Positions 5,303-45,757 of a stretch of DNA of 64,000 nt are shown piece by piece; positions within the stretch are counted from its first letter, which is position 1, and each line of letters begins with the position of its first letter. The DNA is from Minisyncoccia bacterium (GTDB lineage: Bacteria > Patescibacteriota > Minisyncoccia > Phycocordibacterales > UBA5272): positions 4,807 to 68,806 of the forward strand of contig JBBSJU010000003.1 in the NCBI GenBank assembly GCA_038256975.1, given 5' to 3'. The translations under genes and the position numbers were made by a program. The notes beneath the pieces were generated by a model. It was not told the origin of the DNA. It saw nothing but the letters and a program-made list of their open reading frames with translations, and did no database searches.

Positions 5303-6369
5303 TACACTATTATACCTCCACCAAGAACTTTTGTACCATTTTTGTTGTAGATAACTGCCGATTGTCCCGGAACAGCAAGTGAAGCTTCTTTCAAAATAAT
5401 TATTGTATTATTTTTATCCTGCACACATCGTGCCTCAATCAAGGCTTGGCGGTATCGTAAACGCACAGATACTTCAGCGTCATTCAGAATTCCTTCAGTC
5501 ATTTGAAATGCGCGTAACTTAATTTCTGTTTCTGGTTTTGTTTGAGGTTTTTTCGTTGAAACAGTGATCGTATTTTTTTCTACATCCCTATCTACAATGA
5601 AAAATGCCTCGTCGTGAGGTGTTTTGTGTGTAATGGTAAAACCATGTCGTTCGCCTAATGTGTAGAGCATTGCTCCGTCATGCGTACCGATTATTTCACT
5701 TTTTTCATTTAAAACACTGCCTGGCTTTGGCGAAAGCTCTTGTTTCAAAAGATCTTTAAACGAGATAGTTCCTACGAAACAAAGCCCTTGGCTATCTCTT
5801 TTGGGCGCGGTGTACAGTTTTGCTTTTTCCGCAATTATACGCACGTCTTTTTTTTCAAGATGCCCAATAGGAAAAAGTACATGTGCTAATTGTGACTGTC
5901 CGAGTGTCCATAAAAAATATGTTTGATCTTTCTCAGTATCTTTACTAACATGCATCTCATACACTTCCCCATTCTTTTTTACCTGAGCGTAGTGTCCTGT
6001 GGCGATATAGTCAGCTCCATGTTTTAAAGCGAAATCCAAGAATGCGCCAAATTTAACTTCTCGATTACACATGACATCAGGATTTGGTGTGTTTCCTGCT
6101 TGGTACTCTTCTAGCATATAGTCTATGACCCCCTTTTTATATTCTTCCTCTAAATCAAGTGTGAGAAATGGAATATCAAGTTGTGCCGCTATGCGCATGG
6201 CGTCAAGACGATCTTCTTTGGCAGTACAAGGAAAACCTTCTGGCTGCCACACTTTTATAAAAACCCCGACTACATTGTAGCCAGATTCTTTGAGCAAATA
6301 TGCCGAAACAGACGAGTCCACTCCGCCTGACATTCCAACAAAAACGGTTTTTGGAAAGTTTTTAAGCAT
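5302..6369 (-). CDS. mnmA: tRNA-specific 2-thiouridylase MnmA
   Basis: PP-loop VGMSGGVDSSVSAYLL near the N-terminus. Conserved FPCTAKED, NPDVMCN and IATGHYA blocks. Confidence 0.9.
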   Translation of the reverse strand: MLKNFPKTVFVGMSGGVDSSVSAYLLKESGYNVVGVFIKVWQPEGFPCTAKEDRLDAMRIAAQLDIPFLTLDLEEEYKKGVIDYMLEEYQAGNTPNPDVMCNREVKFGAFLDFALKHGADYIATGHYAQVKKNGEVYEMHVSKDTEKDQTYFLWTLGQSQLAHVLFPIGHLEKKDVRIIAEKAKLYTAPKRDSQGLCFVGTISFKDLLKQELSPKPGSVLNEKSEIIGTHDGAMLYTLGERHGFTITHKTPHDEAFFIVDRDVEKNTITVSTKKPQTKPETEIKLRAFQMTEGILNDAEVSVRLRYRQALIEARCVQDKNNTIIILKEASLAVPGQSAVIYNKNGTKVLGGGIIV

Positions 6370-7851: not shown

Positions 7852-9216
7852 CTAGAGTGGTAGATTAATAGGTGGTTCTGCTTTTGTAGATCCAATACGT
7901 TTTAGTGATGGTGCTGCTGAGACTTGTCCAGGGAAATGGTACACAGTTGCGAGTTCTTCAGTATTTAATATAAAACGAGTTGGGTCATCTTTTACTGATG
8001 GTTTCTTAAAGGCTTTTACAGGATCAACTGAAAAGAAGCGAATTTTAAAAGCTTCCCAAATATCATGAACTACACCACTCGGGATTCCATTATACCAATC
8101 TTCATTACTGTGAGCTTTGTAAAAACCTTTTCGTTTCTGAATTTTAGCGACAGCCTCATCTTTTTTTATAATAAGTTTAAGTCCTGTCGTATCTTCCCAT
8201 GGAAAATCAAAACTTGTTGTATTTTCTGGTCTAAAACCGTTATAGTTGCCATGACCAAATTGACGTAAACACCCTGTTGCTGCATCAATATTTCTTGGAT
8301 CAAAGTGTTTTTTATCAGCAATATACGCAACACGAATCATTACTTCAAAACCCGGTTTAGAAATATTATTATAAATCGCTTCAACTTTTTGTTTATCTGT
8401 ATATGAGAGATCCGAATCCTTTTTTGCTTCTGGGACATTGCCCCGAGCCTTCTCATCTGTTTTTCGTGCTTCTGCAAGTTCAGCCTTGGCTTCTTTAATT
8501 TTTTCTTTTAGCTCATCATTTGTAAGCTCAAGTCCGTAATAAATCTTGTTCAATGCTTTTTGCGCGTCTAATTTCCATGTATCAAATTTCCCATCTACCG
8601 CGCGACAAATAATCTGAAACCAAATTTGTTCGCCTTTTTTAACCGAACCCATCCATTCAATAAGTGGCGCTATCGGATCGACTTTAAACTCTTCTTTCGG
8701 ATCCTTATCGAGTTTATAATCAACATAGGTGCGAATAGGGATAGCGTCCTCCCCTACTAAGGCAAAATCATTTCCCCAAACATCGTGTTCTTTTGGATCA
8801 TAACGAAGATAATTTGTGTAGTCTTCAGCTTCTGTTATTTCTATTCCAGGATACTGTGCGTACAGCGCTGACTCTATGGCATTTTTAAACTTACTGTTTG
8901 TGCGAATAAAAAAGCGTACGTCACCTTCTATAGAGGCAATTTCCAGTGAAAACCAATTCCGAACCTTCCCATCCCAAAATTTTGCATACCACGTACTCGT
9001 TCCACCTCCTTGATGCAAAGAAGTAAGAAACATCTCCATAGCAAGGGGTGATTTAAACAAATCTCGAGGTAAGCGCACTTCAAGTAAAATCCATTTTATA
9101 GAATTGAGAAATTGCGCCTGAACGTGCCGTACCCAATGTCTCCACCAGAGTATGCCGAGTCCTGCAGAAAGTGCGATAAAGAATAATAGCGTAATGATTG
9201 CCCCAAGGTAATTCAT
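7852..9216 (-). CDS. hypothetical N-terminally membrane-anchored protein with a central Lys/Glu-rich coiled-coil
   Basis: 454-aa ORF with one N-terminal TM helix. No recognisable catalytic motif. Confidence 0.5.
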   Translation of the reverse strand: MNYLGAIITLLFFIALSAGLGILWWRHWVRHVQAQFLNSIKWILLEVRLPRDLFKSPLAMEMFLTSLHQGGGTSTWYAKFWDGKVRNWFSLEIASIEGDVRFFIRTNSKFKNAIESALYAQYPGIEITEAEDYTNYLRYDPKEHDVWGNDFALVGEDAIPIRTYVDYKLDKDPKEEFKVDPIAPLIEWMGSVKKGEQIWFQIICRAVDGKFDTWKLDAQKALNKIYYGLELTNDELKEKIKEAKAELAEARKTDEKARGNVPEAKKDSDLSYTDKQKVEAIYNNISKPGFEVMIRVAYIADKKHFDPRNIDAATGCLRQFGHGNYNGFRPENTTSFDFPWEDTTGLKLIIKKDEAVAKIQKRKGFYKAHSNEDWYNGIPSGVVHDIWEAFKIRFFSVDPVKAFKKPSVKDDPTRFILNTEELATVYHFPGQVSAAPSLKRIGSTKAEPPINLPL

Positions 9217-10333: not shown

Positions 10334-13300
10334 TCATGGCTTAATAACGATGTTTATAATGCGATTTGGCACATAGACCACCTTTATTACCTCTTTTCCG
10401 TCTAGATATTTTAACACATTATTTTCATTTAGGGCAGCCCTTTTGACCACATCTTCCCCGGAATTAGTAGCTACCGTGATGGTGCCACGAAGTTTCCCGT
10501 TTATTTGGACACCGATTGTAATTTCATCATCAACGAGAAGCTTTTTGCTGGCTTTTGGCCAAAGACTTGTGTGTATTCCTTCCCTGTTGCCACATTCTTT
10601 GAACAAGTACTCCGTCACATGAGGAATGAAAGGATTTAGTATTTGAAGTATGAGGGAGAAATCTTTTACTGAAACCTTACAACCATCCATCACATTCATC
10701 GTTTCCATAGCCTTAGCAACGGCAGTATTGAAACTATAACTTTCAATATCCTTGGTTACTTTATTGATAAGCTTATGAATTGCTTTTTCAGCCATAGCAT
10801 CACTTTTTAAAACATTTTCTGTAAGAACGGTTTGAGCCTTCTTATACAATCGCTCAATAAATCGCCGACACCCAATAATACTTTCTTCTGACCATGGAAT
10901 AGATTCTCCATACGGACCCATAAAGGCAATGTAAAGGCGAGTAGTATCTGCACCGTATGTTTCCACAACCTCATCAGGATTAACCACATTTCCCCAACGT
11001 TTACTCATTTTTCTTCCGTCAGAAGCCATAATGAAACCATGTGTCACGAGCTGCTTAAAAGGTTCTTCTGTTGGCACCAATCCATAATCTCTAAGAACTT
11101 TGTGCCAAAAACGAGCATACAAAAGATGCCCTGTGGCATGTTCTGACCCACCTAAATACACGTTCACTTGATTCCAATATTTTATTTCCTTTGGATCTGC
11201 AAAAACTTTTTTGTTTTGCGCGTCCATGTAGCGTAGATGATACCAACTTGATCCTGCCCATCCGGGCATAGTATTCGTCTCATAGCCTGCTTTTTTCCAA
11301 GAGGCAATATTTGCAAGAGGACCTTCTCCGGTACCTGTTGGTTCGTATGAAGCCACATCAGGAAGGGTTAACGGCAACTTTTTAACCTCATGAATTAATC
11401 CCTCTTTATCTTTATAGAGCGGAATTGGCTCACCCCAATAGCGCTGTCGTGCAAAAATAGCGTCTCGCATCTTATATCGAGTCACCAGCTTTCCACCAAC
11501 TGATTTTGTAATTTCCTTTTTTGCTTGTGCTGAAGTAAGTCCAGAAAATGTGCCTGAACGCGCCACAACACCTTCTCCAGAAAACGGTAGATTATAGCCG
11601 AATTTCTCTAAAGCATACACATGTAATACTTCCACGATTTCTTTTTTTGCTTGTTCTTTCGATATCCATTCAACTTTGAATTTACCTTTCTCATTGTTTT
11701 CGAGTGCATCGCCCTTGTTTTCAAGATCTTTAAGTTTTATATGTACAAAACGAGTAAACGCCTGATGAGCTACATTTTTAGAAGTGGCAAAATATTTGTA
11801 ATCAAATATTTCTTCACTAAAGGAAACAACCTTTCCATTACAATAACCTGTCTCTTCTTGGAGCTCGCGCAATGCGGTTTGACTTGGCTGTTCACCATTC
11901 TCTACTGTTCCACCGATAAGGAGTCGCCCACCAAGTTCTGGGCCCCAGTTTATTGTTAATACCTTACCGTCAGGGGCTTCAACAAAAGCAACAATTTTAT
12001 TTTTTTGAGTAAAATTTGTAACACCTTTTACGTCCGCACGAACAAAAATTGGATTGATAACATTTTTAATAGGAAGATTATACTTTCGGGCAAATTCAAA
12101 ATCTCGCTCATCGTGTGCAGGCACTCCCATTATTGCGCCAGTTCCATATCCAGGAAGCACGTAATTTGCAATCCAAACAGGAATCTTTTCTTTTGTGCCA
12201 GGATGTGTAGCAAATATCTGTGTAAAAACTCCTGTTTTCTCTTTCGATGCATCAAAATCATTTTTCTCATGATCTTTAATAACATTTTCAATATACTCTT
12301 TAACATCTTTTGTCGTCTGCCATCCAACATTAAGCCACGTTCGCGCAAGCTCGGCTGAAACCGCAAGGAATGTTGCACCGAAGAGCGTGTCCGGACGAGT
12401 CGTGAACACAGTGACTTCATGTTTTCCTTCTGACTGCCCTGGAACATGCAACGTAAAAACAATTTCTGCACCCTCACTTTTTCCAATCCAGTTTTTTTCT
12501 ATTTCCTTTACGTTGTTTGGCCAAGCAATCGTATCTAAGCCAGACAAAAGTCGGTCAGCATACGCAGTGATTCGTAAAAACCATTGCCGAATATTCTTTT
12601 TTGTAACAGGATATCCGCCACGCTCTGATACTGGTCCGTCTTTACTATCGACAATTTCATCGTTAGCAAGCACAGTCCCGAGTGCTTCACACCAATTCAC
12701 CTGGGCAACGCCCTCATATGCAAGACGGTACTTCATCAATGTCTCTTGTTTCTGTAACGGAGACATCTTTTTCCACTCATTTTTATCAAAACCTAAAACT
12801 GTATCCGATACAAAAGCACTTACATTTTGATTTCCTCTTTTTTCAAAAATCTTTACAAGACCCTCAATAGGTAGTGCTTTCTTTTTAGTCGTGTCGTAGT
12901 AGGAACTATAAAGTTTCAAAAATATCCACTGTGTCCATTTGTAATATTCATGGTCAGTTGTATTTATCTTTTTGTCCCAATCAAAAGAAAAACCAAGTTT
13001 TTTGAGTTGCCCTTCGAAGGTTTTTACATTTATCGCAACAGCTTTCTTGGGGTGTACTTTATTTTGTATTGCAAACTGCTCAGCAGGAAGACCGAAGGCG
13101 TCATATCCCATTGGGTTTAAAACATTGAATCCTTCCATACGCTTCTTGCGAGCCACAATGTCTGTTGCGGTATAACTTCGTGGGTGACCTATATGAAGCC
13201 CTACTCCTGACGGGTACGGAATCATCGAAAGAATATAAAACGGTTTTTTTCTTGTCTTCCCACTTGCGAGCGCTTTAAATGGTTTTTCTTTATCCCATTT

Positions 13301-13402
13301 CTTTTGGAGTACTGGTTCTATTTTTTTAGGATCATACGTAACGGGAATACTTGATGCCTTTTTCGTTACCGCCTTTGTTACGTTTTTTTGAACACGTGCC
13401 AT
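10334..13402 (-). CDS. leuS: leucine--tRNA ligase with an inserted Nudix-hydrolase domain
   Basis: HIGH (HIGH at LHIGHPRS) and KMSKS (KMSKR) motifs. The CP1 editing domain ends at MGVPAHDERDFEFARKYNLPIKNVI. After CP1, an extra ~140 aa carries a perfect Nudix box GTVENGEQPSQTALRELQEETGY (G-x5-E-x7-REUxEExGU). Total 1022 aa. Confidence 0.9.
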   Translation of the reverse strand: MARVQKNVTKAVTKKASSIPVTYDPKKIEPVLQKKWDKEKPFKALASGKTRKKPFYILSMIPYPSGVGLHIGHPRSYTATDIVARKKRMEGFNVLNPMGYDAFGLPAEQFAIQNKVHPKKAVAINVKTFEGQLKKLGFSFDWDKKINTTDHEYYKWTQWIFLKLYSSYYDTTKKKALPIEGLVKIFEKRGNQNVSAFVSDTVLGFDKNEWKKMSPLQKQETLMKYRLAYEGVAQVNWCEALGTVLANDEIVDSKDGPVSERGGYPVTKKNIRQWFLRITAYADRLLSGLDTIAWPNNVKEIEKNWIGKSEGAEIVFTLHVPGQSEGKHEVTVFTTRPDTLFGATFLAVSAELARTWLNVGWQTTKDVKEYIENVIKDHEKNDFDASKEKTGVFTQIFATHPGTKEKIPVWIANYVLPGYGTGAIMGVPAHDERDFEFARKYNLPIKNVINPIFVRADVKGVTNFTQKNKIVAFVEAPDGKVLTINWGPELGGRLLIGGTVENGEQPSQTALRELQEETGYCNGKVVSFSEEIFDYKYFATSKNVAHQAFTRFVHIKLKDLENKGDALENNEKGKFKVEWISKEQAKKEIVEVLHVYALEKFGYNLPFSGEGVVARSGTFSGLTSAQAKKEITKSVGGKLVTRYKMRDAIFARQRYWGEPIPLYKDKEGLIHEVKKLPLTLPDVASYEPTGTGEGPLANIASWKKAGYETNTMPGWAGSSWYHLRYMDAQNKKVFADPKEIKYWNQVNVYLGGSEHATGHLLYARFWHKVLRDYGLVPTEEPFKQLVTHGFIMASDGRKMSKRWGNVVNPDEVVETYGADTTRLYIAFMGPYGESIPWSEESIIGCRRFIERLYKKAQTVLTENVLKSDAMAEKAIHKLINKVTKDIESYSFNTAVAKAMETMNVMDGCKVSVKDFSLILQILNPFIPHVTEYLFKECGNREGIHTSLWPKASKKLLVDDEITIGVQINGKLRGTITVATNSGEDVVKRAALNENNVLKYLDGKEVIKVVYVPNRIINIVIKP

Positions 13403-18049: not shown

Positions 18050-19090
18050 TTATACTTCTTTTACACTCAATACACAAGGATCTCCGTTCTCTTTTTGGAG
18101 AGAGCCCCCTTCTGTGTACGTATTACACCAATGTATCCTTTCTTCTCCTTCTAACCAGTGTGGTTGATATCGTTCTCGTATAAATGGCTTAAGCTCAATA
18201 GAAACAAGTGTGTCGTCGCTCAATGTTACAAGAAGTGCCAGACCTTCCTGAACATCTGACGTGAACCATTGATCAAAAATAAAATTTCCCAGCGAATAAA
18301 AAATAGGTTTGCCATTATACATTTCCATGTCTTGTACTACATGAGGATGAGCGCCAATGACCATGTCAGCGCCAGCAATAATTGCAGATTGGGCGATTTC
18401 ACGTTCTTTACCCCCTGCTTTTTTCTCATACTCAATGCCCCAATGCGGATAGAGTATGACAAAATTACCTTTCTGTTTTTCTTCTCTTATTTTGTCTTGT
18501 ATCGAAGTAAATTTAGGATTCTCAAATTGATTGTACCCAATAAATGAAATGGAAAGTTTTTCTTTTTTTAGATTTAACGCAAGCCGTGATTCCAAGTTAC
18601 TGGGGTCTCCGAAATAACTAATCTGAGAATTATCTAAATTTACTCGTGTTTGTTGCAAGCCAGATAGTCCAAAGTTATTCGTGTGATTGTTTGCCAAACT
18701 TACAATATCAATGCCGACAGTACTTAAATCAAGAGCAGTATGAGTAGCAAATGTGAACTGTAAATTTTCTTTTGAAACAACAGATTCGTACGTTGTGATA
18801 GGCCCTTCGAGATTAATGAGTGTGATGTGAGCAGCATCAATATCTTTTTGTACGTATTCAAACAAAGCAGCAGTTCCGTGCTCATTTATGTATTTTCGTA
18901 CAGATCGATCAAGCATAACATCTCCAAATACAAGTATTGTGGTTCTCTCCGGTGCCTGTAAAAACGGTATGGCAACACGTTCTTCTGTAAATACGCTATT
19001 GTCAATATTTTTTTGTGATTGATATAAAAAAATAAAACAAAGAAGCATTAAGCCCGCTATACCGAAGTATAAAAATGGCCTGTACGACAT
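18050..19090 (-). CDS. CapA/PgsA-family metallophosphatase-like protein
   Basis: N-terminal TM. ILVFGDVMLDR and SLANNHTNNFG motifs typical of the CapA family. Confidence 0.7.
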   Translation of the reverse strand: MSYRPFLYFGIAGLMLLCFIFLYQSQKNIDNSVFTEERVAIPFLQAPERTTILVFGDVMLDRSVRKYINEHGTAALFEYVQKDIDAAHITLINLEGPITTYESVVSKENLQFTFATHTALDLSTVGIDIVSLANNHTNNFGLSGLQQTRVNLDNSQISYFGDPSNLESRLALNLKKEKLSISFIGYNQFENPKFTSIQDKIREEKQKGNFVILYPHWGIEYEKKAGGKEREIAQSAIIAGADMVIGAHPHVVQDMEMYNGKPIFYSLGNFIFDQWFTSDVQEGLALLVTLSDDTLVSIELKPFIRERYQPHWLEGEERIHWCNTYTEGGSLQKENGDPCVLSVKEV

Positions 19091-19105: not shown

Positions 19106-19933
19106 CTAAACACCACTGTTAGGATTGTTTCGTGCAGAAGAAAGACAAGACTGTAATTCTGTAGTCTGTGTAAACCCACACTCTCCGTTTATTTGGCGTT
19201 CACAACGCGCTGTTTGAAAACAGGCATATTCAGCCCTGTATTCACACGTTGTCATAACGTCTACATCAGAACAAATCTGTCCACTACATCCCGTGCGTCG
19301 GCACTCCTTCTGTCCAGGAGGCGTAAGTAATCCGCTACCAGTATTAGTTTCTTCAAAACGCACCGGTACCCATAAGACACTATTTTTCTTTACATCTCCT
19401 GTAGGGTTTGCTTTGTTAAAAACAAGATAGCCGGTTTTTGTCGCAGGGTCACCATAGGTAATAGTCCCTAAAAAAGACACAAACGCAGTTGAGTTTGTTG
19501 CCCCACTAGCACGAATCGTAAACGCCCCTATTTTTTCTTCTCGTTCATTCCGAACCTCTCCAGAAGCGATACCTTGAGAAAACCATGTTCCTCGTGCAAG
19601 CCCTTCGATTTGTAAACCACTTCGTACGCTACTACCAGAGGTTGGCTCAACGAGTCGAATGTCTTTGTTTGAAAAGCGTGCATTTGTTGCAATACTAGAA
19701 GTTGCTTGTCCATCTGAAAAACGATCACTACAACCTCCGCCTAAAAGTCCACACTTAGGAATACCTAAGAAATCACGCACGATAATTTCCCCGAGTGTTC
19801 TTTTTTTAGTAGCATTATTTTCAGCAATACTGTCAGCAGCTTTTTGAGATGAAGGGAAAACAAGCCATGCAAACAGCGCGATGACAAGAAACCCTATTGC
19901 AAGGAGAGCTATTTTTTTAAGTACGTCAAGCAT
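19106..19933 (-). CDS. secreted protein with a C-terminal 10-cysteine domain, function unknown
   Basis: Signal/TM at the N-terminus. C-terminal ~110 aa contains 10 Cys (CGLLGGGCSD...CRRTGCSGQICSD...CEYRAEYACFQTARCERQINGECGF...SC). Confidence 0.5.
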   Translation of the reverse strand: MLDVLKKIALLAIGFLVIALFAWLVFPSSQKAADSIAENNATKKRTLGEIIVRDFLGIPKCGLLGGGCSDRFSDGQATSSIATNARFSNKDIRLVEPTSGSSVRSGLQIEGLARGTWFSQGIASGEVRNEREEKIGAFTIRASGATNSTAFVSFLGTITYGDPATKTGYLVFNKANPTGDVKKNSVLWVPVRFEETNTGSGLLTPPGQKECRRTGCSGQICSDVDVMTTCEYRAEYACFQTARCERQINGECGFTQTTELQSCLSSARNNPNSGV

Positions 19934-21755: not shown

Positions 21756-23087
21756 TTATTTTCTAAAACTTGTCATAACAAAAGACCGTATTGCTCGCAC
21801 ATCAGCTTCTACGTTTTTTGAACCGTCAAGAATAATTCCTACTGGTCGAGCTGTTTCACCAAAAGGAATGTCAAAAACAAAAACGGCTGTTTGTCCATTT
21901 ACAGAGCTCCTTACCGAACCGCCAACAAACTGAGCGTCCCCTTTAAAAAGGTTATGGTTTTCTATTCCTGAAAATGCTGGTGCACCATAAATTCGTGTTT
22001 CAGCGGTATCAGCACTTATAGTAAGTAAGAACTTTCTATTAAAATACATGTACCGAAGTAGTTGGTAGAGGTCTGAGACAGTTGTGTTGCTTTGCCCCTC
22101 AGCTATGGTTGTTTTAGTGAATCGCGTTTTTTCCATTCCTATTGCCTTTGCTTTTGCAGTGATTAAATCAATCGTTCGAGAAGTCCCAAGTGCACGAGCA
22201 AGCACATGAACTGCTTCCTGAGATGACTCCTGCAAAAGAATGTACAGATAGTCATAAACAGTATATTTCTTGCCCGCCTCTAATCTCGGTTTTAAGGTAG
22301 AAATATTATCAGAGGGATCAACAGTAATCTTACGCTCTATATCCATATATTCAGCTGAAACAATGGCGATAAGTAAATCTTGTGCAATTGAAGCTGAAGT
22401 TTCATCTCCTGAACCTTCTGATGCAAACGTAAACCCGTCAGCAAGATCAGCAACAAGGAAATGCTCGGCTGTTATGGTGCTCGGTCCAAAAGTATATACT
22501 TTCTCAAAATTAATTACATTAGTAACATTTTCATATACAACAAGAGGTGTTCCTTGTGTAATTAAATCAAATACCTTTTTTGCATCTGCTGTTTCCAAAC
22601 GAATACACCCTCCGGAATAGTTAGTACTCACTTCTGTACCGTCCGGATAATATGGAAGGCCGTGAATAAAAAAGTTTCCTTGAAACTGCATACTCCACGG
22701 CATATAAACGTTTCCGATTGAAGAAAGATGATTTTTCTCTTTCGTTTTTATGCTATAGAGCCCTGCAGGAGTTTCCCACCACGAACCTTCTCGTCCTTTT
22801 GCTTTAATAGGTATCGAAAGTAGCGAGACGTTATCTTTGTATACGTCGAGTTGCATTGTGGTTAAATTTGCCAAAACAAACATTTGCCCACTACTTTGCA
22901 GGCGACTAATCTCTTCTTCTAGAAAATTTTTTGATGTTTCGTTTGGAACTATCTTTTGGCGCAAAGTATTTGGAAGATATCCCTCAACGTTTTGCGCAAT
23001 GGTACGAATGTTAAAAAACTGTTGGAACAAAAAGATTCCAACAACGCCAAAGGCTATTCCTAGAGAAATAAGGAGGGGCGCACGCAT
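21756..23087 (-). CDS. L,D-transpeptidase (YkuD) fused to a catalytically degenerate PBP5/S11-like domain
   Basis: YkuD catalytic motif HGLPYYPDGTEVSTNYSGGCIRL. The C-terminal half aligns to the neighbouring DacA, but SxxK becomes SIAQ, SxN becomes SSQ and KTG becomes VGG. Confidence 0.7.
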   Translation of the reverse strand: MRAPLLISLGIAFGVVGIFLFQQFFNIRTIAQNVEGYLPNTLRQKIVPNETSKNFLEEEISRLQSSGQMFVLANLTTMQLDVYKDNVSLLSIPIKAKGREGSWWETPAGLYSIKTKEKNHLSSIGNVYMPWSMQFQGNFFIHGLPYYPDGTEVSTNYSGGCIRLETADAKKVFDLITQGTPLVVYENVTNVINFEKVYTFGPSTITAEHFLVADLADGFTFASEGSGDETSASIAQDLLIAIVSAEYMDIERKITVDPSDNISTLKPRLEAGKKYTVYDYLYILLQESSQEAVHVLARALGTSRTIDLITAKAKAIGMEKTRFTKTTIAEGQSNTTVSDLYQLLRYMYFNRKFLLTISADTAETRIYGAPAFSGIENHNLFKGDAQFVGGSVRSSVNGQTAVFVFDIPFGETARPVGIILDGSKNVEADVRAIRSFVMTSFRK

Positions 23088-29509: not shown

Positions 29510-29526
29510 ACGTAGAAGTGTACCTG

Positions 29527-29580
29527 AAAATATTAAAAATAAGAATGCGCTCCCCGACGAGCGGGGGCGCATGTTTTCTT
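29527..29580. terminator. GC-rich hairpin with flanking A/T runs immediately upstream of uvrB (putative intrinsic terminator/attenuator)
   Basis: gcgctcccc-gacgagc-gggggcgc. Preceded by aaaatattaaaaataagaat and followed by atgttttctt. Confidence 0.4.
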
Positions 29581-29613
29581 GAATGTTCAACGGAACCTCG
29601 GCAACACCGTTGC

Positions 29614-29706
29614 CTAGCGGCCCGTCACCTCGCCGCGATCAACGCCGCAGACACCGGCGATGACGGCGATGTTGTCCGAGTGCGTTTTCTTGATGTCCTC
29701 GATCAT
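29614..29706 (-). CDS. putative 30-aa small ORF/leader peptide (MIEDIKKTHSDNIAVIAGVCGVDRGEVTGR) in GC-rich segment upstream of uvrB
   Basis: SD-like gaggaaag 5 nt upstream of the ATG. 27 of 30 codons end in G/C, a strong GC3 bias that is foreign to the host. Followed by hairpins and the terminator above. Confidence 0.25.
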   Translation of the reverse strand: MIEDIKKTHSDNIAVIAGVCGVDRGEVTGR

Positions 29707-29769
29707 GACACTTTCCTCAAACGTCCGTGGCGAGATTACCACACCCTAAATCTACTCCGCTGACAAAAA

Positions 29770-31125
29770 ATGTCAATTTCTTATTCACGTGGCATAATGA
29801 AAGAAATGGAAAAAGTCTTCACTATTCACGCCCCGAAGGTTGCTGAGAACAAAGCAATCTATACCTATTCCTATACCGACGGAGCTACTTCTTTTTCATT
29901 TCAAGAAGAACACCTTTTCCCTTTTGTAATTTCCGATTCCAAAGCACTCCGAGCCCTTGCCATTGCGACATCCATTAGCTATTTCAAACTTCACCTTGCC
30001 ACACAGATTCATATTGAGTGGTCACTCAATGATGCTGAAAAAGAATTTTGGCAGTGGCTTTTTAGGAATGGTTTTTCTGAACTTGTGTACCAAAACAGGC
30101 TCGAGTGGAATGTTGTCGACCAGATACAAATAACTTGTGAAGAAACAGGTACCACACAACCACTTGAGACAACGTCCTCCTACGAACCAAAAGCTATTGT
30201 CGGAATCGGTGGTGGTAAAGATTCTTCGCTTGCAGTAGAACTTCTCAAAAGAATAAATGTCCCTGTGACAGGTTTTGCTACAAAAGTTCGATCCATTCCG
30301 TTGCTCATTGAAAATACTCAAGCACTTAGTATTCCTCTTCTTGAAGTAGTCCGCAAAACAGACCCGCAACTACTAACACTCAAAGAAAATGTTTTTCTCG
30401 GACATGTTCCTATCTCTCTTATTTATGCCTTCACAGGAGTAGTGCTTGCAGAGCACGAGCAAAGTAAGTATGTCGTTGTAGCAAACGAAACAAGTGCCGA
30501 TGAATCAAACACGGAGTGGCTTGGCCGGCCAGTAAACCACCAATGGTCAAAGACAAGTGACTTTGAAAAAAAAGTTCAAGATTTTGTACACCAAACTATT
30601 TCTCCTGAAATTACCTACTTTTCTATTTTGCGACCACTGGGCGGACTTCGAGTGACAAACTTATTCGCAAAATTATGTCCTCACGTGTTTCCTGCTTTTA
30701 GTAGCTGCAATAAAAACTTCACCATAGAAGAAACCGGTGCGAACAGATGGTGTGGTGTGTGTGCGAAATGTCTTGGCACAAATATACTTTTATCGCCCAC
30801 GCTCTCCCTTGAAAAAAGGGCCGCGATATTTGGAAGTGATGTATATCAAAATGAAAGCCTTGCTCCGCTCCTCAAAGAGCTCCTCGGGCTTTCGCCTGTA
30901 AAACCTTTTGACTGTGTGGCAACACGAGCTGAGATGTGCCGCGCAGCAATTCAAAGTGATGATTTCAAAAATTCACCACTTGGCAAAAAACTTTCTCCCG
31001 AAGAATGGATCAGTGTTGAAAGCGAAGCAAAACATGCAGATAGCTTCCTTACCCATTACCACCCCCACTTTATTCCCAAGGAGCTAAATACTCGGTTACG
31101 CGCTATTATAGAAACATGCGAATAG
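29770..31125 (+). CDS. PP-loop ATP pyrophosphatase-family protein (AsnB C-terminal-domain-like); candidate muropeptide-modifying enzyme (MurL-like epimerase or amidotransferase)
   Basis: AIVGIGGGKDSSLAVELL resembles the SGGxDS PP-loop of the AsnB synthetase domain. No N-terminal glutaminase Cys. CxxC pair (WCGVCAKC) near the C-terminus. The stop overlaps the murD start by 10 nt. Confidence 0.55.
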   Translation: MSISYSRGIMKEMEKVFTIHAPKVAENKAIYTYSYTDGATSFSFQEEHLFPFVISDSKALRALAIATSISYFKLHLATQIHIEWSLNDAEKEFWQWLFRNGFSELVYQNRLEWNVVDQIQITCEETGTTQPLETTSSYEPKAIVGIGGGKDSSLAVELLKRINVPVTGFATKVRSIPLLIENTQALSIPLLEVVRKTDPQLLTLKENVFLGHVPISLIYAFTGVVLAEHEQSKYVVVANETSADESNTEWLGRPVNHQWSKTSDFEKKVQDFVHQTISPEITYFSILRPLGGLRVTNLFAKLCPHVFPAFSSCNKNFTIEETGANRWCGVCAKCLGTNILLSPTLSLEKRAAIFGSDVYQNESLAPLLKELLGLSPVKPFDCVATRAEMCRAAIQSDDFKNSPLGKKLSPEEWISVESEAKHADSFLTHYHPHFIPKELNTRLRAIIETCE

Positions 31126-32426
31126 GAATCGTTGGATTTGGCCGGGAAGGCAAAATGGCACTTGAATATTGGGGCAACCAAGCCCAAGAAATTTCTGTGT
31201 ACGACCAAAATGAGTCACTTGAGATTCCTGCACAGTGCACAAAAAGACTTGGATCAAATTGGAAAGAGCTTCTTCTTGCAGATTCTCCTACACTTGATCT
31301 TATTGTCCGGTCTCCTGGAGTGCCCCTTTGGGATATTGAAGATACAGTCCAAGGGAAAGTTACCACTCTCGCTAAAGAGTTTTTTGACCTTTGTCCTTGC
31401 CCTATTATTGGCGTGACGGGCACAAAAGGAAAAGGTACGACGGCAACACTCATCTATGAAATTTTAAAGACTGATGATAAAGACGTGTATCTTGTGGGAA
31501 ACATCGGCACGCCCTCACTTTCTATTCTCCCAAAACTTACGCCGCAGTCTATTGTTGTCTACGAACTTTCAAGCTTTCAACTTTTTGATCTTCATAAAAG
31601 CCCGCAGATAGCTGTGTGTCTTTTGGTAACCGAAGACCATCTCGACTGGCATAAAGACATACAGCAATATCAGGCATCAAAGGGAAACATTTTTAAATAT
31701 CAAAAAGAAGAAGATGTGACGATATGGTTTCAAGATAATGTAGTGAGCACACAGCTCGCATCTTTGAGCATTGCAAAGAATAGAATTCCTTACGGAGAAA
31801 ATGCAGTGGTGAAAGTAAGTGAAAAAGGTTTCTTTGTCTACAACAATGAAGAAATATGTGCCGTGCATGATGCCCTACTTCCTGGCAAACACAACGAACA
31901 AAATATCTGTGCAGCAATTGCAGCAACCTGGAATCTTGTAGATAAAAAATCTATCGTACAAGCAATTAAAACATTCAAAGGACTTCCTTTTCATATTGAA
32001 ACCGTCGCAACACACAATGGTATTACGTTTGTAAATGATTCTTTTGCCACAAACCCTACAGCAACGGCTGTTGCTATTGAAAGCATGACTGCTCCGGCCA
32101 CACTCCTTATTGGTGGTGTAGACAGAGGTCTTCATTTGGAACCACTTGTTACAAGTATTCAAAAATCATCTCTTATTAAAGAAGTTGTCGTATACGGCGC
32201 AGAACGAGAACGTATAGCAAAATTACTCTCTCTCCATAATATTTCACATGTTGTTATTGATGGAAACTTCGAAGAGGTCTTCCGGACGGCAATAGAAAAA
32301 ACAAAGGCCGGAGAAACTATTCTTTTTTCTCCGGGCGCACCAAGTTTCGATATGTTCAAAGATTACCAAGATCGAGGGCTCACATTTAATGCGCTCGTAG
32401 CCAAATACGCACAAGGTTTGCTATAG
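31116..32426 (+). CDS. murD: UDP-N-acetylmuramoyl-L-alanine--glutamate ligase (MurD or MurD2-type)
   Basis: IIGVTGTKGKGTTATL P-loop. Mur ligase middle and C-terminal domains (GNIGTP, HNEQN). Confidence 0.85.
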   Translation: MRIGIVGFGREGKMALEYWGNQAQEISVYDQNESLEIPAQCTKRLGSNWKELLLADSPTLDLIVRSPGVPLWDIEDTVQGKVTTLAKEFFDLCPCPIIGVTGTKGKGTTATLIYEILKTDDKDVYLVGNIGTPSLSILPKLTPQSIVVYELSSFQLFDLHKSPQIAVCLLVTEDHLDWHKDIQQYQASKGNIFKYQKEEDVTIWFQDNVVSTQLASLSIAKNRIPYGENAVVKVSEKGFFVYNNEEICAVHDALLPGKHNEQNICAAIAATWNLVDKKSIVQAIKTFKGLPFHIETVATHNGITFVNDSFATNPTATAVAIESMTAPATLLIGGVDRGLHLEPLVTSIQKSSLIKEVVVYGAERERIAKLLSLHNISHVVIDGNFEEVFRTAIEKTKAGETILFSPGAPSFDMFKDYQDRGLTFNALVAKYAQGLL

Positions 32427-32436
32427 TACGGAAAAT

Positions 32437-32931
32437 ATGGAAATAGTCCAGGTTGGCGAAAAGGTACTCCGAAATAAAGCAGAGAAAGTCCCTGAAAACT
32501 TCTTCAAAACGGCGAGGCTTTTTAATATGCTTAATGAAATGAAAGCCGCTCTTGATAGCCAAAAGGATGGCGTGGCAATCGCAGCCCCTCAAATCGGTCT
32601 TCCGTATCGTATTTTTCTTGTTTCTGAAAAAGCCTACCATGGTAACGCAAAAGACATACCGCTTGTATTTATCAATCCAACTATCACAAAAAAATCAAAG
32701 AAGACAGAGGTAATGCCTGAAGGCTGCCTTTCGGTACGCTGGAAATACGGCGAGGTAAAACGAAGTGTCAATACCACTGTCGAGGCATATGACCAGAATG
32801 GAGTAAAATTTACGCGTGTTGGTGGTGGACTACTCTCTCAAATATTTCAACACGAAACAGACCACCTCGATGGCATTCTCTTTATCGACAAAGCCAAAAA
32901 AGTGGTCGAACAGCCGCCACAGGAAAAATAA
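32437..32931 (+). CDS. def: peptide deformylase
   Basis: GVAIAAPQIG, EGCLS and HETDHLDG motifs. Confidence 0.9.
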   Translation: MEIVQVGEKVLRNKAEKVPENFFKTARLFNMLNEMKAALDSQKDGVAIAAPQIGLPYRIFLVSEKAYHGNAKDIPLVFINPTITKKSKKTEVMPEGCLSVRWKYGEVKRSVNTTVEAYDQNGVKFTRVGGGLLSQIFQHETDHLDGILFIDKAKKVVEQPPQEK

Positions 32932-32936
32932 AACCC

Positions 32937-33788
32937 ATGAACATACCTTTCATTTTTTTTGGTACCCCAGAATTATCGACACACACCTTAAATGCCTTAG
33001 AGAAAGAAGGCTTGCTTCCGACCGCGATTGTAACTGCTCCTGATGCTCCTGCTGGCCGAGGGCTTGTTCTTGCTCCATCACCAGTAAAAATCTGGGCACT
33101 TGCAAAAGGCATTCCTGTATACGCGCCAGAAAAAATTCGAAACAACGGAGAAATACACGCACTCTGTCGGCAATTCCAATTTGCAATCTTAGCCGCATAC
33201 GGCAAAATAATTCCTCAATCCATTCTTGATTGTTTTCCAAAAGGAATCTTGAATGTCCACCCCTCACTTCTGCCATTGTACCGTGGACCAAGCCCTCTTG
33301 AATTTCAAATTCTCAATGATGAAAAAGAGTTTGGGGTTACTATAATTAAACTTGATTCAGAATGCGACCATGGAAATGTAATCGCTCAACGAGAAATTAC
33401 TTTTACAGAGACACCTTCAAAACAAAAGCTTGGTGAAATTGGCTTTTCTGAAGGAGGAAAGCTTATCGCCCAGTATCTTGGCCCATACATATCTGGAGTA
33501 TTACCCACCCTTGAACAGAATCACGAACTCGCAACGTTTACACAGAAGATAGAGAAAAAAGATGGTGAAATACTTCCGACCGACACGGAAAGACAAAAGT
33601 ATTTAAAATACTTAGCGTATCAACCTTGGCCCGGCACATTCTTTTTTGTTGAACATACTGGTAAAATGATTCGGCTCAAGATAACACAAGCACGGTTTGA
33701 AGATAATACATTTATAATCGAAAAAGTTATTCCCGAAGGCAAGAAAGAAATACTTTATACTGATTTTCTCCGCGGCTTACATAAATAA
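32937..33788 (+). CDS. fmt: methionyl-tRNA formyltransferase
   Basis: N-terminal FFGTPE. HPSLLPLYRG formyltransferase motif. C-terminal tRNA-binding domain. 283 aa. Confidence 0.9.
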   Translation: MNIPFIFFGTPELSTHTLNALEKEGLLPTAIVTAPDAPAGRGLVLAPSPVKIWALAKGIPVYAPEKIRNNGEIHALCRQFQFAILAAYGKIIPQSILDCFPKGILNVHPSLLPLYRGPSPLEFQILNDEKEFGVTIIKLDSECDHGNVIAQREITFTETPSKQKLGEIGFSEGGKLIAQYLGPYISGVLPTLEQNHELATFTQKIEKKDGEILPTDTERQKYLKYLAYQPWPGTFFFVEHTGKMIRLKITQARFEDNTFIIEKVIPEGKKEILYTDFLRGLHK

Positions 33789-41196: not shown

Positions 41197-41244
41197 GTGT
41201 GACCCTAAGCAAGCAAACTGCTTTGCTTGCGTCGGAGAGTCGAA
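41197..41244 (-). repeat. inverted partial copy of the tRNA-Glu 3' end (T-loop through acceptor 3' strand, 22 nt) split by a 25-nt hairpin insert
   Basis: The reverse complement of 41197..41244 is ttcgactctccg + acgcaagcaaagcagtttgcttgct + tagggtcaca. The tRNA 3' end at 41139..41160 is ttcgactctccgtagggtcaca. Confidence 0.6.
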
Positions 41245-41355
41245 AAGCTTTTCCATGTTTTGAGAATCTTTGATACGATAAAACAGGAAAAGGTGTACTG
41301 CGACTGTAGGTCGAGACTCTCGTTTAATCACCATCAACAGCTAGCACCAGTAGCG

Positions 41356-41388
41356 TACAAAAACCTCCTATTTGGAGGTTTTTGTACT
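41356..41388. repeat. perfect 14-bp-stem palindrome gtacaaaaacctcc-tattt-ggaggtttttgtac upstream of gene A
   Basis: Direct inspection. Could act as a bidirectional terminator or operator. Confidence 0.55.
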
Positions 41389-41392
41389 TGTG

Positions 41393-41424
41393 AAAAAAAA
41401 TTGAAAAAGTTATATAATCTTTTT
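41393..41424 (+). promoter_or_regulatory. AT-rich promoter-like region with TATAAT hexamer ending 8 nt before the ATG of gene A (near-leaderless)
   Basis: ttgaaaaagttatataatctttttATG. A -35-like ttgtga/ttgaaa lies upstream. Confidence 0.3.
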
Positions 41425-42318
41425 ATGAAAACCATGTTTACAGACAAATTTCCCGACGACATGAAATCTAACACGGAGCTCGAAGCAGTAAAAATTAAAT
41501 ACCCTAATTATGACGACTATTACGTTGCGAGCGGATCGATAAAAGAACGTAGAGAGAGGTTCGATGAAATGTATCAAATATATGCTCCATATGCGGATAG
41601 ACATTTTCTATCAGATCTCAAAAAGCAATTTCATCAACGAACGTGGGAGATGTATATTGGATATGTTCTTGTAAAAAACAGTGTTATTTTCACCTCGACC
41701 GACAAAGGCCCAGATTTTCTTATAGAAACTCCTGGCGGAAAGATTTGGATTGAAGCAGTTGCGTGTGGTCCAGGAGAAGGACCAGATCGAGTTCCTGCAA
41801 TGGTGTATGGTGGAGTAAGTAACGTCCCTCAGGAAGAAATGATCATACGTATAGTTAGTAGTCTTGATTCAAAGTATAAAAAATTTAAAAAATACCTAGC
41901 TGACGGTATTGTGTCTCCGGAAGATAAATTGATAATTGCCGTAAACGCAGGCGGATTTTCACACATTGTTGACGGAGATATGCCACTTATTTTAAAGGCA
42001 ATTTTTGCCATTGGCCACAAAACACTGTCATGGCCTATAAATTCTGATCATAGTGTTCCTGGAAAATCAGGTGTTTCGACCAGAAATTTTATCGAGAAAA
42101 GAAATGGGAGTAAGGTGCCGACAACTTTTTTTCTTGAAGAAGACCATAAAATAATCAGTGCCATAATGTATTGCAGTAAAAACATACTGAATCATGAAAA
42201 TCCCCCTGGGATAGATATTTCAGTTGTGAGAAACTACATCGCTACCAATTCACTCCCAGAAACTGAGTTTCCGTTTATGGATTATATTAGTACAAAAAAC
42301 GGAGAAATTCTAATATAG
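41425..42318 (+). CDS. hypothetical protein (islet gene A), possible PD-(D/E)xK-like nuclease fold
   Basis: 297 aa from ATG 41425 (MKTMFTDKF...). The track ORF starts at 41227 but would span the palindrome and tRNA fragment. GPDFLIETPGGKIWIEAVA is weakly reminiscent of a D...ExK motif. No confident family. Confidence 0.5.
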   Translation: MKTMFTDKFPDDMKSNTELEAVKIKYPNYDDYYVASGSIKERRERFDEMYQIYAPYADRHFLSDLKKQFHQRTWEMYIGYVLVKNSVIFTSTDKGPDFLIETPGGKIWIEAVACGPGEGPDRVPAMVYGGVSNVPQEEMIIRIVSSLDSKYKKFKKYLADGIVSPEDKLIIAVNAGGFSHIVDGDMPLILKAIFAIGHKTLSWPINSDHSVPGKSGVSTRNFIEKRNGSKVPTTFFLEEDHKIISAIMYCSKNILNHENPPGIDISVVRNYIATNSLPETEFPFMDYISTKNGEILI

Positions 42319-42322
42319 TACA

Positions 42323-43450
42323 TTATTGAGGTTGCTTATCTTTCAAAAAGTTTAATAGGCAGTGACGAACAAGCGATTCAAAGAAATGGGCGAATGGTAA
42401 TTTTTGCGAACCAGAAAATGATCTATTGTCGATAGTCATACCCATACTTGGATCGGTATCCCAAGTCCTAGCCTCTTTCATTCTTAGTGGCATACTCAAG
42501 TACATTGATTCGCCACTATGGAGATACGCAGATCTGGCACTATATATGGTTTTTAGTGTCGGAACTAAGGCATCTTTTCTTATTTTACAATGTTCGGCTC
42601 TAGATTTTCCGCCTTTAAAAAATCTTGTGCAATATTTTTTAATAAAGGAAACAAAACGTAACTTAGAATTCCTGACAGAAAAAATCTCCTTCAATTTATC
42701 CTGTTGTTCTTTTGACAAACTAGTGACATCCACGATTTCGTGTATTTCCCTTGCACTAAAAATATCCACTGAAGAATCCATATCTATATACTTACTTAAA
42801 ATTTCTACGGCCGAAACAAGTCGAATGAATACCATTTCGGTGTCTAGACTAACTTGTCTCAAGGATTGTAAATATTGAAATGATGCCCATAAGAAATCTT
42901 GATGGAACTCCGTGGGTAGAGATCTGATCTTGTCTAAAAATTCAACAAGCCCAACACTAAAACTACGGGTCTTGTCTGAAAAAATAGTCGGATGAATCCC
43001 ACCTTCTGTACGCCTGTATTTTAAATATCTTTCGGATCGATGTTTTTGTCCATTTGAAAAAATGGTACTAGTCGCAACGATATAAAATCTGCATTGAAAA
43101 TATAAAGAGAATAAAGATATAAATTCTTCTGCCACCCCCTCCTTAAAATAGTAACCGCTTTTGTGGACATCTAGGTAACGCGAGTCGTTCTGTTCTCCAT
43201 GTGTGGCAGACTTTATTCGGAGAAGATATTTATATAAACCATTTTCATCTTTTTCAAAAGTTAAAAATGAACATGAAATTAACCCTTTCTCGTAATCAAG
43301 CCCGCCGGTTATACGGCATTCAGTGGCAATTTCATATTCTTCAAAATACTGATCTTTCTTTTTTCTAAATTTAACACAGTCAATATGCCTGACCCAGGAC
43401 ATTCTATTGTCTAGTTTTCTTCTGACTATGGACATATCTAAATAGTACAC
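42323..43450 (-). CDS. hypothetical protein (islet gene B) with C-terminal Rx4H HEPN-like motif; candidate abortive-infection/defence RNase
   Basis: 375 aa. C-terminal TIYSARSAYLHSGE matches the R-x4-H HEPN motif. Convergent with gene A, stops 4 nt apart. Confidence 0.45.
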   Translation of the reverse strand: MYYLDMSIVRRKLDNRMSWVRHIDCVKFRKKKDQYFEEYEIATECRITGGLDYEKGLISCSFLTFEKDENGLYKYLLRIKSATHGEQNDSRYLDVHKSGYYFKEGVAEEFISLFSLYFQCRFYIVATSTIFSNGQKHRSERYLKYRRTEGGIHPTIFSDKTRSFSVGLVEFLDKIRSLPTEFHQDFLWASFQYLQSLRQVSLDTEMVFIRLVSAVEILSKYIDMDSSVDIFSAREIHEIVDVTSLSKEQQDKLKEIFSVRNSKLRFVSFIKKYCTRFFKGGKSRAEHCKIRKDALVPTLKTIYSARSAYLHSGESMYLSMPLRMKEARTWDTDPSMGMTIDNRSFSGSQKLPFAHFFESLVRHCLLNFLKDKQPQ

Positions 43451-44446: not shown

Positions 44447-45757
44447 TTACCTCCCCCTCCACTCCTCGTTCTGCCGTACCAAAAGTTCATCTTTCATTTC
44501 TGGATATCGCAAGAGTTCTTCTGTAGCACGTTCCATACGAATACCTTGAGAGGCTTTGAGAAGCACTACGTCCCCTTCTTCTAGTAAACTCTCAGCAAAT
44601 TTTCCTGCACTACGCGAATCTTCAAACTGAAAAATATTATCCTCGTGCATACCATCATTAAGCGCACCTTCGACAATAAAGCGTGCTCGCATACCAACAG
44701 TAATAAGCTTGTGTGCTGCCTGGCTTGCGTCTTTGCCGATTTCTTTATGTACTCGTTCAGTATGTTTACCAAGCTCAAGCATGTCACCTAAAATTGCTAT
44801 TTTCTTTCCTCGGACTTCGATTTCCCGCAGAGTCTCGAGAGCGTGCTTCATAGCTTTGGGAGCAGCGTTGTAAGTGTCATCAAGAAGAATTGCGCCCTTC
44901 ACACCATCTAAGATCCGCATTCGCCCAGATTCTGGCGTGTATTCTGAAAGTGCGTTATCAAGAAGCGTGAGATCAACATCAAGCACTTGGGCAACAGCAC
45001 CCGCAGCGGCGCCTGCAGCAGCGTACACACGACCTAGATAGCCTTTGCGCTCAATATGCACCACTTTTCCATCCTGAGTGTGGAGCTCATACTGCATACC
45101 TGAAATATCTTTCTTTGTTTCGTCTTTTTTGTCGTACAAATATGAGTCGTTATGAATCGAAACGGTATTGTCTGCATTAAAGCCGAAAGTAACTTTTGTG
45201 TGCGTAATGTCTTCGGCAATTTTTGTTGCATCAGCATCATCGCCACAATATACAAAGACGCCGTCTTTTTTCAATGCTTGTGGCAGAAAAGCTTTTTCTT
45301 TGATTATAAGGTCGCGATTGTTTTGGAAATTTTCTATGTGTACTGGAGTCTCACCAAACTGAGTAAGTACCGCAATGTTTGGCTTGAGCCATTTTGTGAG
45401 TGTTTCGATATCACCGGGTGCGTCGGCACCAACTTCAAGCACCAGCCACGTGGGGTATTCCTCACGAACAATGAGACGGAGCGTACTTCGCACAAGAAGT
45501 GCAAGCCAGCCAAACGGATTACTCCACTGATTGTCTTCACCTAAGATAGTCAGCGGTACTCCTATTTCACTGTTAAAACTTTTGTAGCTTTTGCGGGCAG
45601 AATATGTGGTGGCGATGGCGGCAAAGATTGCATCTTTACTTGAAGTCTTACCAATATTTCCGGTGACAGCGATAATTTTTGGCTTATAGGCCTTAAGTGT
45701 TGCCTGAGCAAGGACGCGCAACAAGAATACAACGACGGGCTTAAAAAATGATTGCAT
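44447..45757 (-). CDS. murF: UDP-N-acetylmuramoyl-tripeptide--D-alanyl-D-alanine ligase
   Basis: IIAVTGNIGKTSSKD P-loop. Mur ligase domains. C-terminal LLKASQGIRMERATEEL is MurF-like. Confidence 0.85.
   Translation of the reverse strand: MQSFFKPVVVFLLRVLAQATLKAYKPKIIAVTGNIGKTSSKDAIFAAIATTYSARKSYKSFNSEIGVPLTILGEDNQWSNPFGWLALLVRSTLRLIVREEYPTWLVLEVGADAPGDIETLTKWLKPNIAVLTQFGETPVHIENFQNNRDLIIKEKAFLPQALKKDGVFVYCGDDADATKIAEDITHTKVTFGFNADNTVSIHNDSYLYDKKDETKKDISGMQYELHTQDGKVVHIERKGYLGRVYAAAGAAAGAVAQVLDVDLTLLDNALSEYTPESGRMRILDGVKGAILLDDTYNAAPKAMKHALETLREIEVRGKKIAILGDMLELGKHTERVHKEIGKDASQAAHKLITVGMRARFIVEGALNDGMHEDNIFQFEDSRSAGKFAESLLEEGDVVLLKASQGIRMERATEELLRYPEMKDELLVRQNEEWRGR

Follow-up and report, generated by a model that had tools for sequence, protein, structure and literature searches.

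A MurL homolog coupled to a MurD-family ligase in a Minisyncoccia genome: a probable MurL/MurD2 route to cell-wall D-glutamate

The window analyzed here, a stretch of 64,000 nt from contig JBBSJU010000003.1 of a Minisyncoccia bacterium, carries two overlapping open reading frames (ORFs) that encode a PP-loop protein of the MurL family and a MurD-family ligase. We estimate at roughly 85% the probability that this gene pair is a candidate phyla radiation (CPR) copy of the MurL/MurD2 route first described in Xanthomonas oryzae, replacing glutamate racemase. The pathway as such was already known (Feng et al., 2017, as related in reviews). According to the proposed mechanism, the ligase would join L-glutamate (L-Glu), and not D-glutamate (D-Glu), to UDP-N-acetylmuramoyl-L-alanine using ATP. 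MurL would bind ATP at its PP-loop and adenylate the alpha-carboxylate of the terminal L-Glu, converting ATP to AMP; adenylation would render the alpha-proton exchangeable, with Cys382 and Glu388 as candidates for the exchange, and the overlapping reading frames would keep the two proteins co-expressed. AMP-forming, ATP/Mg2+-dependent and unidirectional L-to-D epimerization has been reported for the MurL of X. oryzae and for the verified orthologs of Micromonospora and Salinispora (PMC8788868). The initial annotation of the window had put forward the Xanthomonas bypass as a candidate role for the pair, and this proposal is now backed by a MurL profile match, by the residues of the ligase and by the conserved pairing of the two genes.

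The PP-loop protein and its relation to MurL

By sequence, the PP-loop protein is homologous to MurL over its full length. Its sole significant family match was NCBIfam NF041275 (MurL), with E=4e-69 and 233 bits over residues 57-445, aligned to profile positions 58-445 of 447. A database search returned at least 2,823 relatives, and all those listed carry both PF26299 MurL_N and PF26298 MurL_epimerase_C. When 1.84 billion cluster representatives were scanned exhaustively, 1,962 MurL-family clusters (50% identity) were found, 907 of them with E<=1e-30. Named relatives come from Minisyncoccia (72% identity), a class within the phylum Minisyncoccota, as well as from Levy-, Roizman- and Saccharibacteria and Peregrinibacteria. 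Pfam already names the MurL domains and curated models exist; our local Pfam copy is older than these families and could not match them. Against that copy the protein gave no match at E<=1 beyond noise, and neither an Asn_synthase nor a glutaminase (GATase) domain was detected. The profile search also produced a marginal match to MnmA (E=0.23) confined to the PP-loop region, while a sequence search of the PDB found no relative.

The resemblance to MurL of the X. oryzae type extends over the full length of the protein. Both are ~440-450 aa long and lie upstream of an adjoining MurD-type ligase, and they have in common the motifs GGGKDS, GHxPxS, NE, NHQWSK, SCN, WCxxCxKC and DCV..E. We aligned 107 MurL sequences, 36 from CPR and 71 from high-GC genomes including Rhodanobacter, and 41 positions were at least 93% conserved. 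The window protein retains every one of them, as does Rhodanobacter MurL, and they include G211-H212-x-P214, N239-E240, E266, S285/R288, S312-C313-N314, W327-C328..C331.K333 and C382-V383. The PP-loop lies within AIVGIGGGKDSSLAVELL (residues 142-158 of the 451-aa ORF), and its G147-G149, D151 and S152 are kept in 105-107 of the aligned sequences. Conservation of the remaining motifs is given in Table 1. Cys382 and Glu388, both nearly invariant, are candidates for the acid/base pair of alpha-proton exchange.

The four-cysteine cluster probably forms a QueC-type structural Zn site. In a Saccharibacteria-like subgroup (P0052, P0072, P0099, P0108, P0113, P0118) the four cluster cysteines are replaced together by D/S/S/S, SSCN becoming TSDN and WCGxCxKC becoming RWSxxSPKS, and C382 is kept. 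The joint replacement of C313, C328, C331 and C334 argues for a structural metal site, which appears to be dispensable in MurL.

An AlphaFold2 model of the window MurL, built on 36 sequences, reached a mean predicted local distance difference test score of 92.9 and a predicted template modelling score of 0.92; in this model GGGKDS (147-152) comes after a strand at residues 139-145. The best solved matches found by Foldseek were QueC (2pg3, E=5e-6, probability 1.0; also 3bl5), QatC and Cap9, with E-values of 5e-6 to 2e-4, and further matches were argininosuccinate synthase, TtuA and MnmA. The probability was 1.0 to QatC, Cap9, argininosuccinate synthase and MnmA as well. No asparagine synthetase (AsnB) structure was present in the 50 best fold matches. 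The initial annotation had described the PP-loop as AsnB-synthetase-like; the assignment to PP-loop ATP pyrophosphatases is correct, while the AsnB likeness is not, given that there is no Asn_synthase match and that the nearest solved folds are those of QueC, QatC and Cap9.

The window protein shares with QueC, QatC and Cap9 the PP-loop nucleotide alpha-hydrolase core and a CxxCxxC-like four-cysteine cluster, although identity is 13-17%. MurL differs from QueC by an additional N-terminal domain of ~135 residues and a C-terminal helical domain of ~100 residues; moreover, it acts on a UDP-muropeptide, which is epimerized and not turned into an amide or nitrile. QueC adenylates a carboxylate with release of AMP and then reacts with ammonia. 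Such a carboxylate-adenylating fold fits the stoichiometry reported for MurL, in which one ATP is consumed and AMP is released, and for which adenylation of the Glu alpha-carboxylate has been proposed (PMC8788868). Two reviews, one of them PMC8788868, regard MurL as a protein without known domains. In our literature search, whose coverage was incomplete, we found no paper linking MurL to CPR, QueC or PP-loop enzymes.

For comparison, NHQWSK(S/T) was back-translated into GC-rich codons and searched for in a genome collection; 120 loci were returned, 116 of them encoding MurL homologs. These belong to cultured Rhodanobacter, to Dyella, Luteimonas, Tahibacter, Mycolicibacterium and Microbacterium, to many Acidimicrobiales and to Peribacteria, and also to single metagenome-assembled genomes (MAGs) of Thermoanaerobaculia, Planctomycetota and Spirochaetales. 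Of 34 loci with both ORFs complete, 32 have MurD after MurL on the same strand; the order is reversed in a few loci, and the adjacency is conserved in at least six phyla. In addition, direct reading of sequences revealed MurL-MurD fusions of 758-790 aa, and a length of 780-900 aa was seen in about 24 of the 150 best representatives of the family, in which the MurL part is found at one end or the other. MurL is N-terminal and MurD C-terminal in the fusions P0042, P0062 and P0107, while in P0329 and P0370 the MurL part is C-terminal. Cultured mycobacteria also contain MurL homologs (L063, L086, L105 and L116, from Mycolicibacterium frederiksbergense, M. llatzerense and M. hodleri), and in L086 and L116 a MurD carrying Arg348 and Asp182 (Escherichia coli numbering) lies beside MurL.

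The coupled ligase and the exchange of MurI and MurL

The window ligase clears the TIGR01087 murD cut-off (317.7 vs. 211.95 bits) and is matched by Mur_ligase_M and Mur_ligase_C, and weakly by MurD-like_N. However, the ligase adjoining the Rhodanobacter MurL (L048:1498-2871) passes the same model with 337.8 bits, and TIGR01087 therefore does not separate MurD from MurD2. The database names of the CPR relatives all read 'D-glutamate ligase'.

A set of residues distinguishes X. oryzae MurD2 from E. coli MurD, namely D182->E197, K348->R358, A414->P433 and L416->F435. The MurD2 substitution E197D shifts L-Glu specificity, E197D/R358K reverses it, and E. coli MurD K319T accepts L-Glu (PMC8788868). 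With D174, F310, R337, P409 and F411 at the corresponding sites, the window ligase is MurD2-like at four of five positions. It combines the MurD architecture and translational coupling to MurL with Arg, Pro and Phe at the MurD2 positions Arg358, Pro433 and Phe435, and differs from MurD2 by having Asp in place of Glu197. We compared 49 MurL-linked MurDs: 46 ligases came from the NHQWSK loci, two were the MurD portions of fusion proteins, and one was that of the window. Position 348 was Arg and position 319 was I, L or F in all 49, position 414 was Pro in 42, and position 416 was mostly F or Y. Asp occupies position 182 in the window ligase and in 26 of the 48 others, from Acidimicrobiales and Mycolicibacterium, and Glu is found in Xanthomonadales, Peribacteria, the fusions and one Micromonosporaceae MAG. 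Since so many of these ligases carry Asp, Glu at position 182 would mark the characterized proteobacterial and Micromonosporaceae enzymes, not all MurL-coupled ligases. The comparison supports the view that the window ligase carries the residue signature of MurL-coupled MurDs, with L-Glu as its presumed substrate. Replacement of Lys319 by a hydrophobic residue, which sets the MurL-linked ligases apart from the four solved MurDs, was also considered as a MurD2 marker and rejected, because within CPR the MurI-linked, Lys348-type MurDs have Phe there too.

Within CPR, position 348 appears to track MurL coupling. It is Arg in 67 and Lys in 53 of the 120 relatives closest to the window ligase, none of which has Lys at position 319. 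The neighborhoods of five Arg348-type and five Lys348-type CPR MurDs were examined. MurL adjoins all five Arg-type ligases (P0136, P0222, P0187, P0206, P0217), with overlaps of 1 to 4 nt, and none of the Lys-type ones (Fisher two-sided p=0.008). After three Lys-type MurDs (P0204, P0212, P0231) comes an Asp_Glu_race gene in convergent orientation; two of these racemase neighbors were scored against TIGR00067 and reached 155 and 165 bits, both above the cut-off of 146.65. An Aminotran_4 gene near the Lys-type P0174 was considered as a possible D-amino-acid transaminase, but it scores as IlvE and was not counted as a source of D-Glu.

Furthermore, murI and murL were found to take the same slot beside murD in related CPR genomes. 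In L129 the order is response regulator-murD-murL-folD, whereas in L126, L130 and L131 it is response regulator-murD-murI-folD, and the ligases of the murL-slot and murI-slot loci are 49% identical and differ by K/R348. We read this gene order as non-orthologous displacement, MurL having taken the place of MurI at one slot while the ligase changed to match. Of our computational results it is the one that speaks most strongly for CPR MurL as the source of D-Glu stereochemistry. The two enzymes are otherwise dissimilar: MurI is a cofactor-independent two-Cys racemase that acts reversibly on free glutamate, whereas MurL uses a nucleotide-dipeptide substrate, consumes ATP and is unidirectional (PMC8788868).

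In a neighbor-joining tree of 165 MurDs, calculated without support values and rooted on E. coli only, the window ligase groups with other Arg-type CPR ligases in a clade of 30, and the sister of this clade is a CPR group of mainly Lys type. Placement in a MurD phylogeny, suggested in the initial annotation, hence puts it with the Arg-type CPR ligases and apart from the high-GC MurL-linked ligases, from which all CPR MurDs are separated. The window ligase is 41-45% identical to Lys348-type, MurI-associated CPR MurDs and about 30% identical to proteobacterial MurD2. Because it is closer to the former, the MurD2 type does not form a single clade in this tree; the MurD2 state looks polyphyletic, which is consistent with a specificity resting on few residues.

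Source of D-glutamate and alternative readings

The organism makes peptidoglycan, as the window encodes MurA, two penicillin-binding proteins, MreC, RsmH, MltG/YceG, an S11 carboxypeptidase, a YkuD transpeptidase and a further Mur ligase, probably MurF (Table 1). Two minus-strand ORFs near the locus, at 18050-19090 and 21756-23087, have cell-envelope functions, one being a PGA_cap (CapA-like) protein and the other combining a YkuD L,D-transpeptidase domain with a weak S11/beta-lactamase-like domain. No Asp_Glu_race or Aminotran_4 match was obtained in the 20 of about 58 ORFs of the 64-kb window that were scanned, and a six-frame translation of the window showed no MurI-like motif. We infer both the epimerase activity of the window MurL and the absence of MurI from the genome.

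A number of observations weigh against this interpretation. The window MurL lies below the NF041275 equivalog cut-off (233 vs. 700 bits) and is ~30% identical to Xanthomonadales MurL. The Rhodanobacter lindaniclasticus homolog (L048) clears that cut-off with 777 bits, and Saccharibacteria, Peregrinibacteria and fused CPR homologs score 270-304; the 700-bit threshold is tuned to Xanthomonadales orthologs, not to the wider MurL family. In the ligase, Asp is retained at the D182 position, where Glu is expected in MurD2. Arg348 alone is no proof either, since streptococcal D-Glu ligases also have it: four solved D-Glu ligases in the PDB all carry K319 and A414, with K at position 348 in three and R in Streptococcus agalactiae. 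Mycobacteria have MurI and canonical MurD, and the MurL-MurD pairs of Mycolicibacterium mean that presence of the pair does not prove dependence on it; in that genus the pair may be a second, redundant pathway or have a different use. Moreover, the search for murI reached only the 64 kb of the genome represented here and the gene may lie elsewhere, an active MurI has been described in at least one member of the CPR (Penalver et al., 2024, as cited in PMC11974145), and a literature search found no assay of a CPR MurL or MurD2.

Several of these points would also suit a conventional MurD adding D-Glu that is supplied by a racemase from elsewhere in the genome, with the MurL homolog being accessory or having a different role, such as the correction of wrongly incorporated L-Glu or activity on a different peptide carboxylate. 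The canonical Asp182, the TIGR01087 'D-glutamate ligase' assignment, the limited part of the genome that was seen, the active MurI of some CPR and the co-occurrence of the pair with MurI in Mycolicibacterium all speak for it. However, TIGR01087 is passed by the MurD beside a true Xanthomonadales MurL and does not discriminate, Asp182 is shared with more than half of the other MurL-linked ligases, and the window holds no second murD, its sole other Mur ligase being the one at 44447-45757. In CPR, furthermore, the Arg348 type goes with MurL and the Lys348 type with MurI, once in the same slot. We consider this explanation unlikely. The PP-loop protein could also amidate the stem peptide, adenylating the Glu alpha-carboxylate and capturing ammonia to give iso-glutamine, by analogy with QueC or NH3-dependent amidotransferases, LtsA/AsnB or MurT/GatD. 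The chemistry of QueC, its closest solved fold, in which adenylation of a carboxylate precedes reaction with ammonia, would be compatible with this role, and the lack of a glutaminase domain would call for free NH3. Yet Asn_synthase and GATase matches are missing, the sequence family is MurL, whose characterized members epimerize without ammonia (PMC8788868), and the occurrence of MurI in the slot of MurL argues that MurL supplies the D-configuration and not an amide. Amidation of this kind appears very improbable, and the LtsA-like iso-glutamine role raised in the initial annotation found no support. Both LtsA/AsnB-type and MurT/GatD-type amidation were rejected, as the PP-loop protein has neither an Asn_synthase nor a glutaminase domain and its partner ligase is a MurD, not a MurT.

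Finally, the fold matches to QueC, TtuA and MnmA, along with the marginal MnmA profile match to the PP-loop, might suggest a tRNA- or nucleobase-modifying enzyme (QueC, TilS, ThiI or MnmA-like) that lies beside murD by coincidence. These matches cover the generic PP-loop core only, at 10-21% identity, whereas the specific full-length match is to MurL. The recurrence of the MurD adjacency in at least six phyla and the fused proteins are difficult to reconcile with coincidence, and a genuine MnmA-like PP-loop gene seems, by eye, to be located at 5302-6369 of the window. We regard this as the least probable of the alternatives, with hardly any weight. A grouping with QueC-like enzymes, which the initial annotation had taken as a sign against a peptidoglycan role, is thus seen at the level of fold only; by sequence family the protein is a MurL, and its assignment to the MurL/MurD2 route stands.

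Gene layout, neighboring genes and significance

Both ORFs of the initial annotation are present, the PP-loop ORF without a glutaminase domain and with its stop overlapping the murD start (Table 1). Read directly from the DNA, murL ends in GAA ACA TGC GAA TAG and murD begins with ATG CGA ATA GGA in a different frame. The murD start cannot move downstream, because the N-terminal GxGxxG motif (IGIVGFGREG) begins at residue 3. The murL start is less certain. The database protein P0001, 100% identical to the window MurL, is annotated from Met13 (29806) with 439 aa, and residues 1-10 of the 451-aa ORF were modeled poorly by AlphaFold2; on these grounds the true product may be the 439-aa form starting at Met13. 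The MSIxYSRGIM N-terminal extension is also present in one relative, P0011 (68% identical).

Table 1. Features of the murL-murD locus and associated genes, in window coordinates.
Feature	Position	Strand	Remarks
murL-type ORF	29770..31125	+	451 aa, longest possible ORF
PP-loop GIGGGKDS	30202..30225	+	Residues 145-152; predicted binding loop for ATP alpha-phosphate/pyrophosphate
NHQWSK	30535..30552	+	Residues 256-261; MurL-specific signature; kept in 106-107 of 107 MurLs
Four-cysteine cluster, SSC313N ... WC328GVC331AKC334	30700..30771	+	Cysteines in 99-101 of 107 MurLs
FDC382VAT motif, followed by E388	30907..30924	+	C382 in 106 and E388 in 107 of 107 MurLs
murL stop/murD start overlap	31116..31125	+	10 nt; stop TAG at 31123-31125, start ATG at 31116-31118
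MurD-family ligase ORF	31116..32426	+	436 aa; MurL-coupled (MurD2-like) type
Asp174 (VTEDHLD)	31635..31637	+	E. coli Asp182, canonical; Glu197 in characterized MurD2
Phe310	32043..32045	+	E. coli Lys319 (NDSKATN -> NDSFATN)
Arg337	32124..32126	+	E. coli Lys348, X. oryzae MurD2 Arg358; tracks MurL coupling
Pro409-Ser-Phe411	32340..32348	+	E. coli Ala414-Ser415-Leu416, MurD2 Pro433/Phe435
def	32437-32931	+	10 nt downstream of murD; co-directional
fmt	32937-33788	+	5 nt downstream of def; co-directional
Further Mur ligase	44447-45757		MurF by eye, given its place beside ftsI/rsmH/mraZ

Downstream, def and fmt are probably part of the murL-murD transcription unit, though unrelated in function. The order murL-murD-def-fmt recurs in the relative L125, where the last two genes match Pfam Pep_deformylase and Formyl_trans_N. 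The neighborhood of P0136, the closest relative with context (ligase 67% identical), is the same as that of the window, with uvrA and uvrB on one side, then murL, murD, def and fmt, and PPIase, HPF ... rmuC on the other. Inside the uvrB-murL spacer (about 29510-29769) there is an 80-bp patch of 65-70% GC at 29601-29680, in a genome of about 40% GC; it matches no Rfam family, and its RNA folding is not significant (z = -1.35, -1.64). Since the spacer at the same point of the syntenic L125 is only 45 bp long, the patch resembles an inserted sequence or the remains of a gene.

Elsewhere in the window, a leucyl-tRNA synthetase of 1,022 aa (10334-13402, minus strand) contains, by eye, an apparent inserted NUDIX box, GGTVENGEQPSQTALRELQEETGY, and in L124 a NUDIX Pfam match was recorded inside the leucyl-tRNA synthetase of a CPR relative. 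Five ORFs of 275-454 aa (743-1732, 7852-9216, 19106-19933, 41227-42318 and 42323-43450) had no Pfam match at E<=0.001.

The locus is a member of a known pathway in a lineage, CPR/Patescibacteria, that is absent from published distribution lists (reviews including PMC8788868). The QueC-like fold of MurL and the MurI/MurL slot exchange with K/R348 were likewise not found in our literature search, the coverage of which was partial. It is tempting to go further and to propose that MurL/MurD2 is one of the two standard D-Glu routes of CPR, and of many Acidimicrobiia, swapped repeatedly with the racemase at the same slot, each time with the Lys/Arg348 change, and that MurL is a QueC-type adenylase using Cys382/Glu388. 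We hold this broader proposal only tentatively and at somewhat less than even odds. If it were true, nature would have repeated the published specificity-switch mutagenesis many times, and a concrete mechanism would be available for an enzyme which reviews describe as having no known domains.

The observations also point to an annotation problem, in that L-Glu ligases receive the name D-glutamate ligase from TIGR01087. The MurI/MurL exchange with its Lys/Arg348 change offers a ready comparative test of the Glu stereospecificity of MurD, and the QueC-like fold provides a testable mechanism for MurL, a proposed narrow-spectrum antibiotic target. A pathway that publications confine to a few genera extends to CPR, Acidimicrobiia and other lineages, and in the bacterium studied here it most probably explains how a small-genome organism obtains D-glutamate for its cell wall without a racemase.

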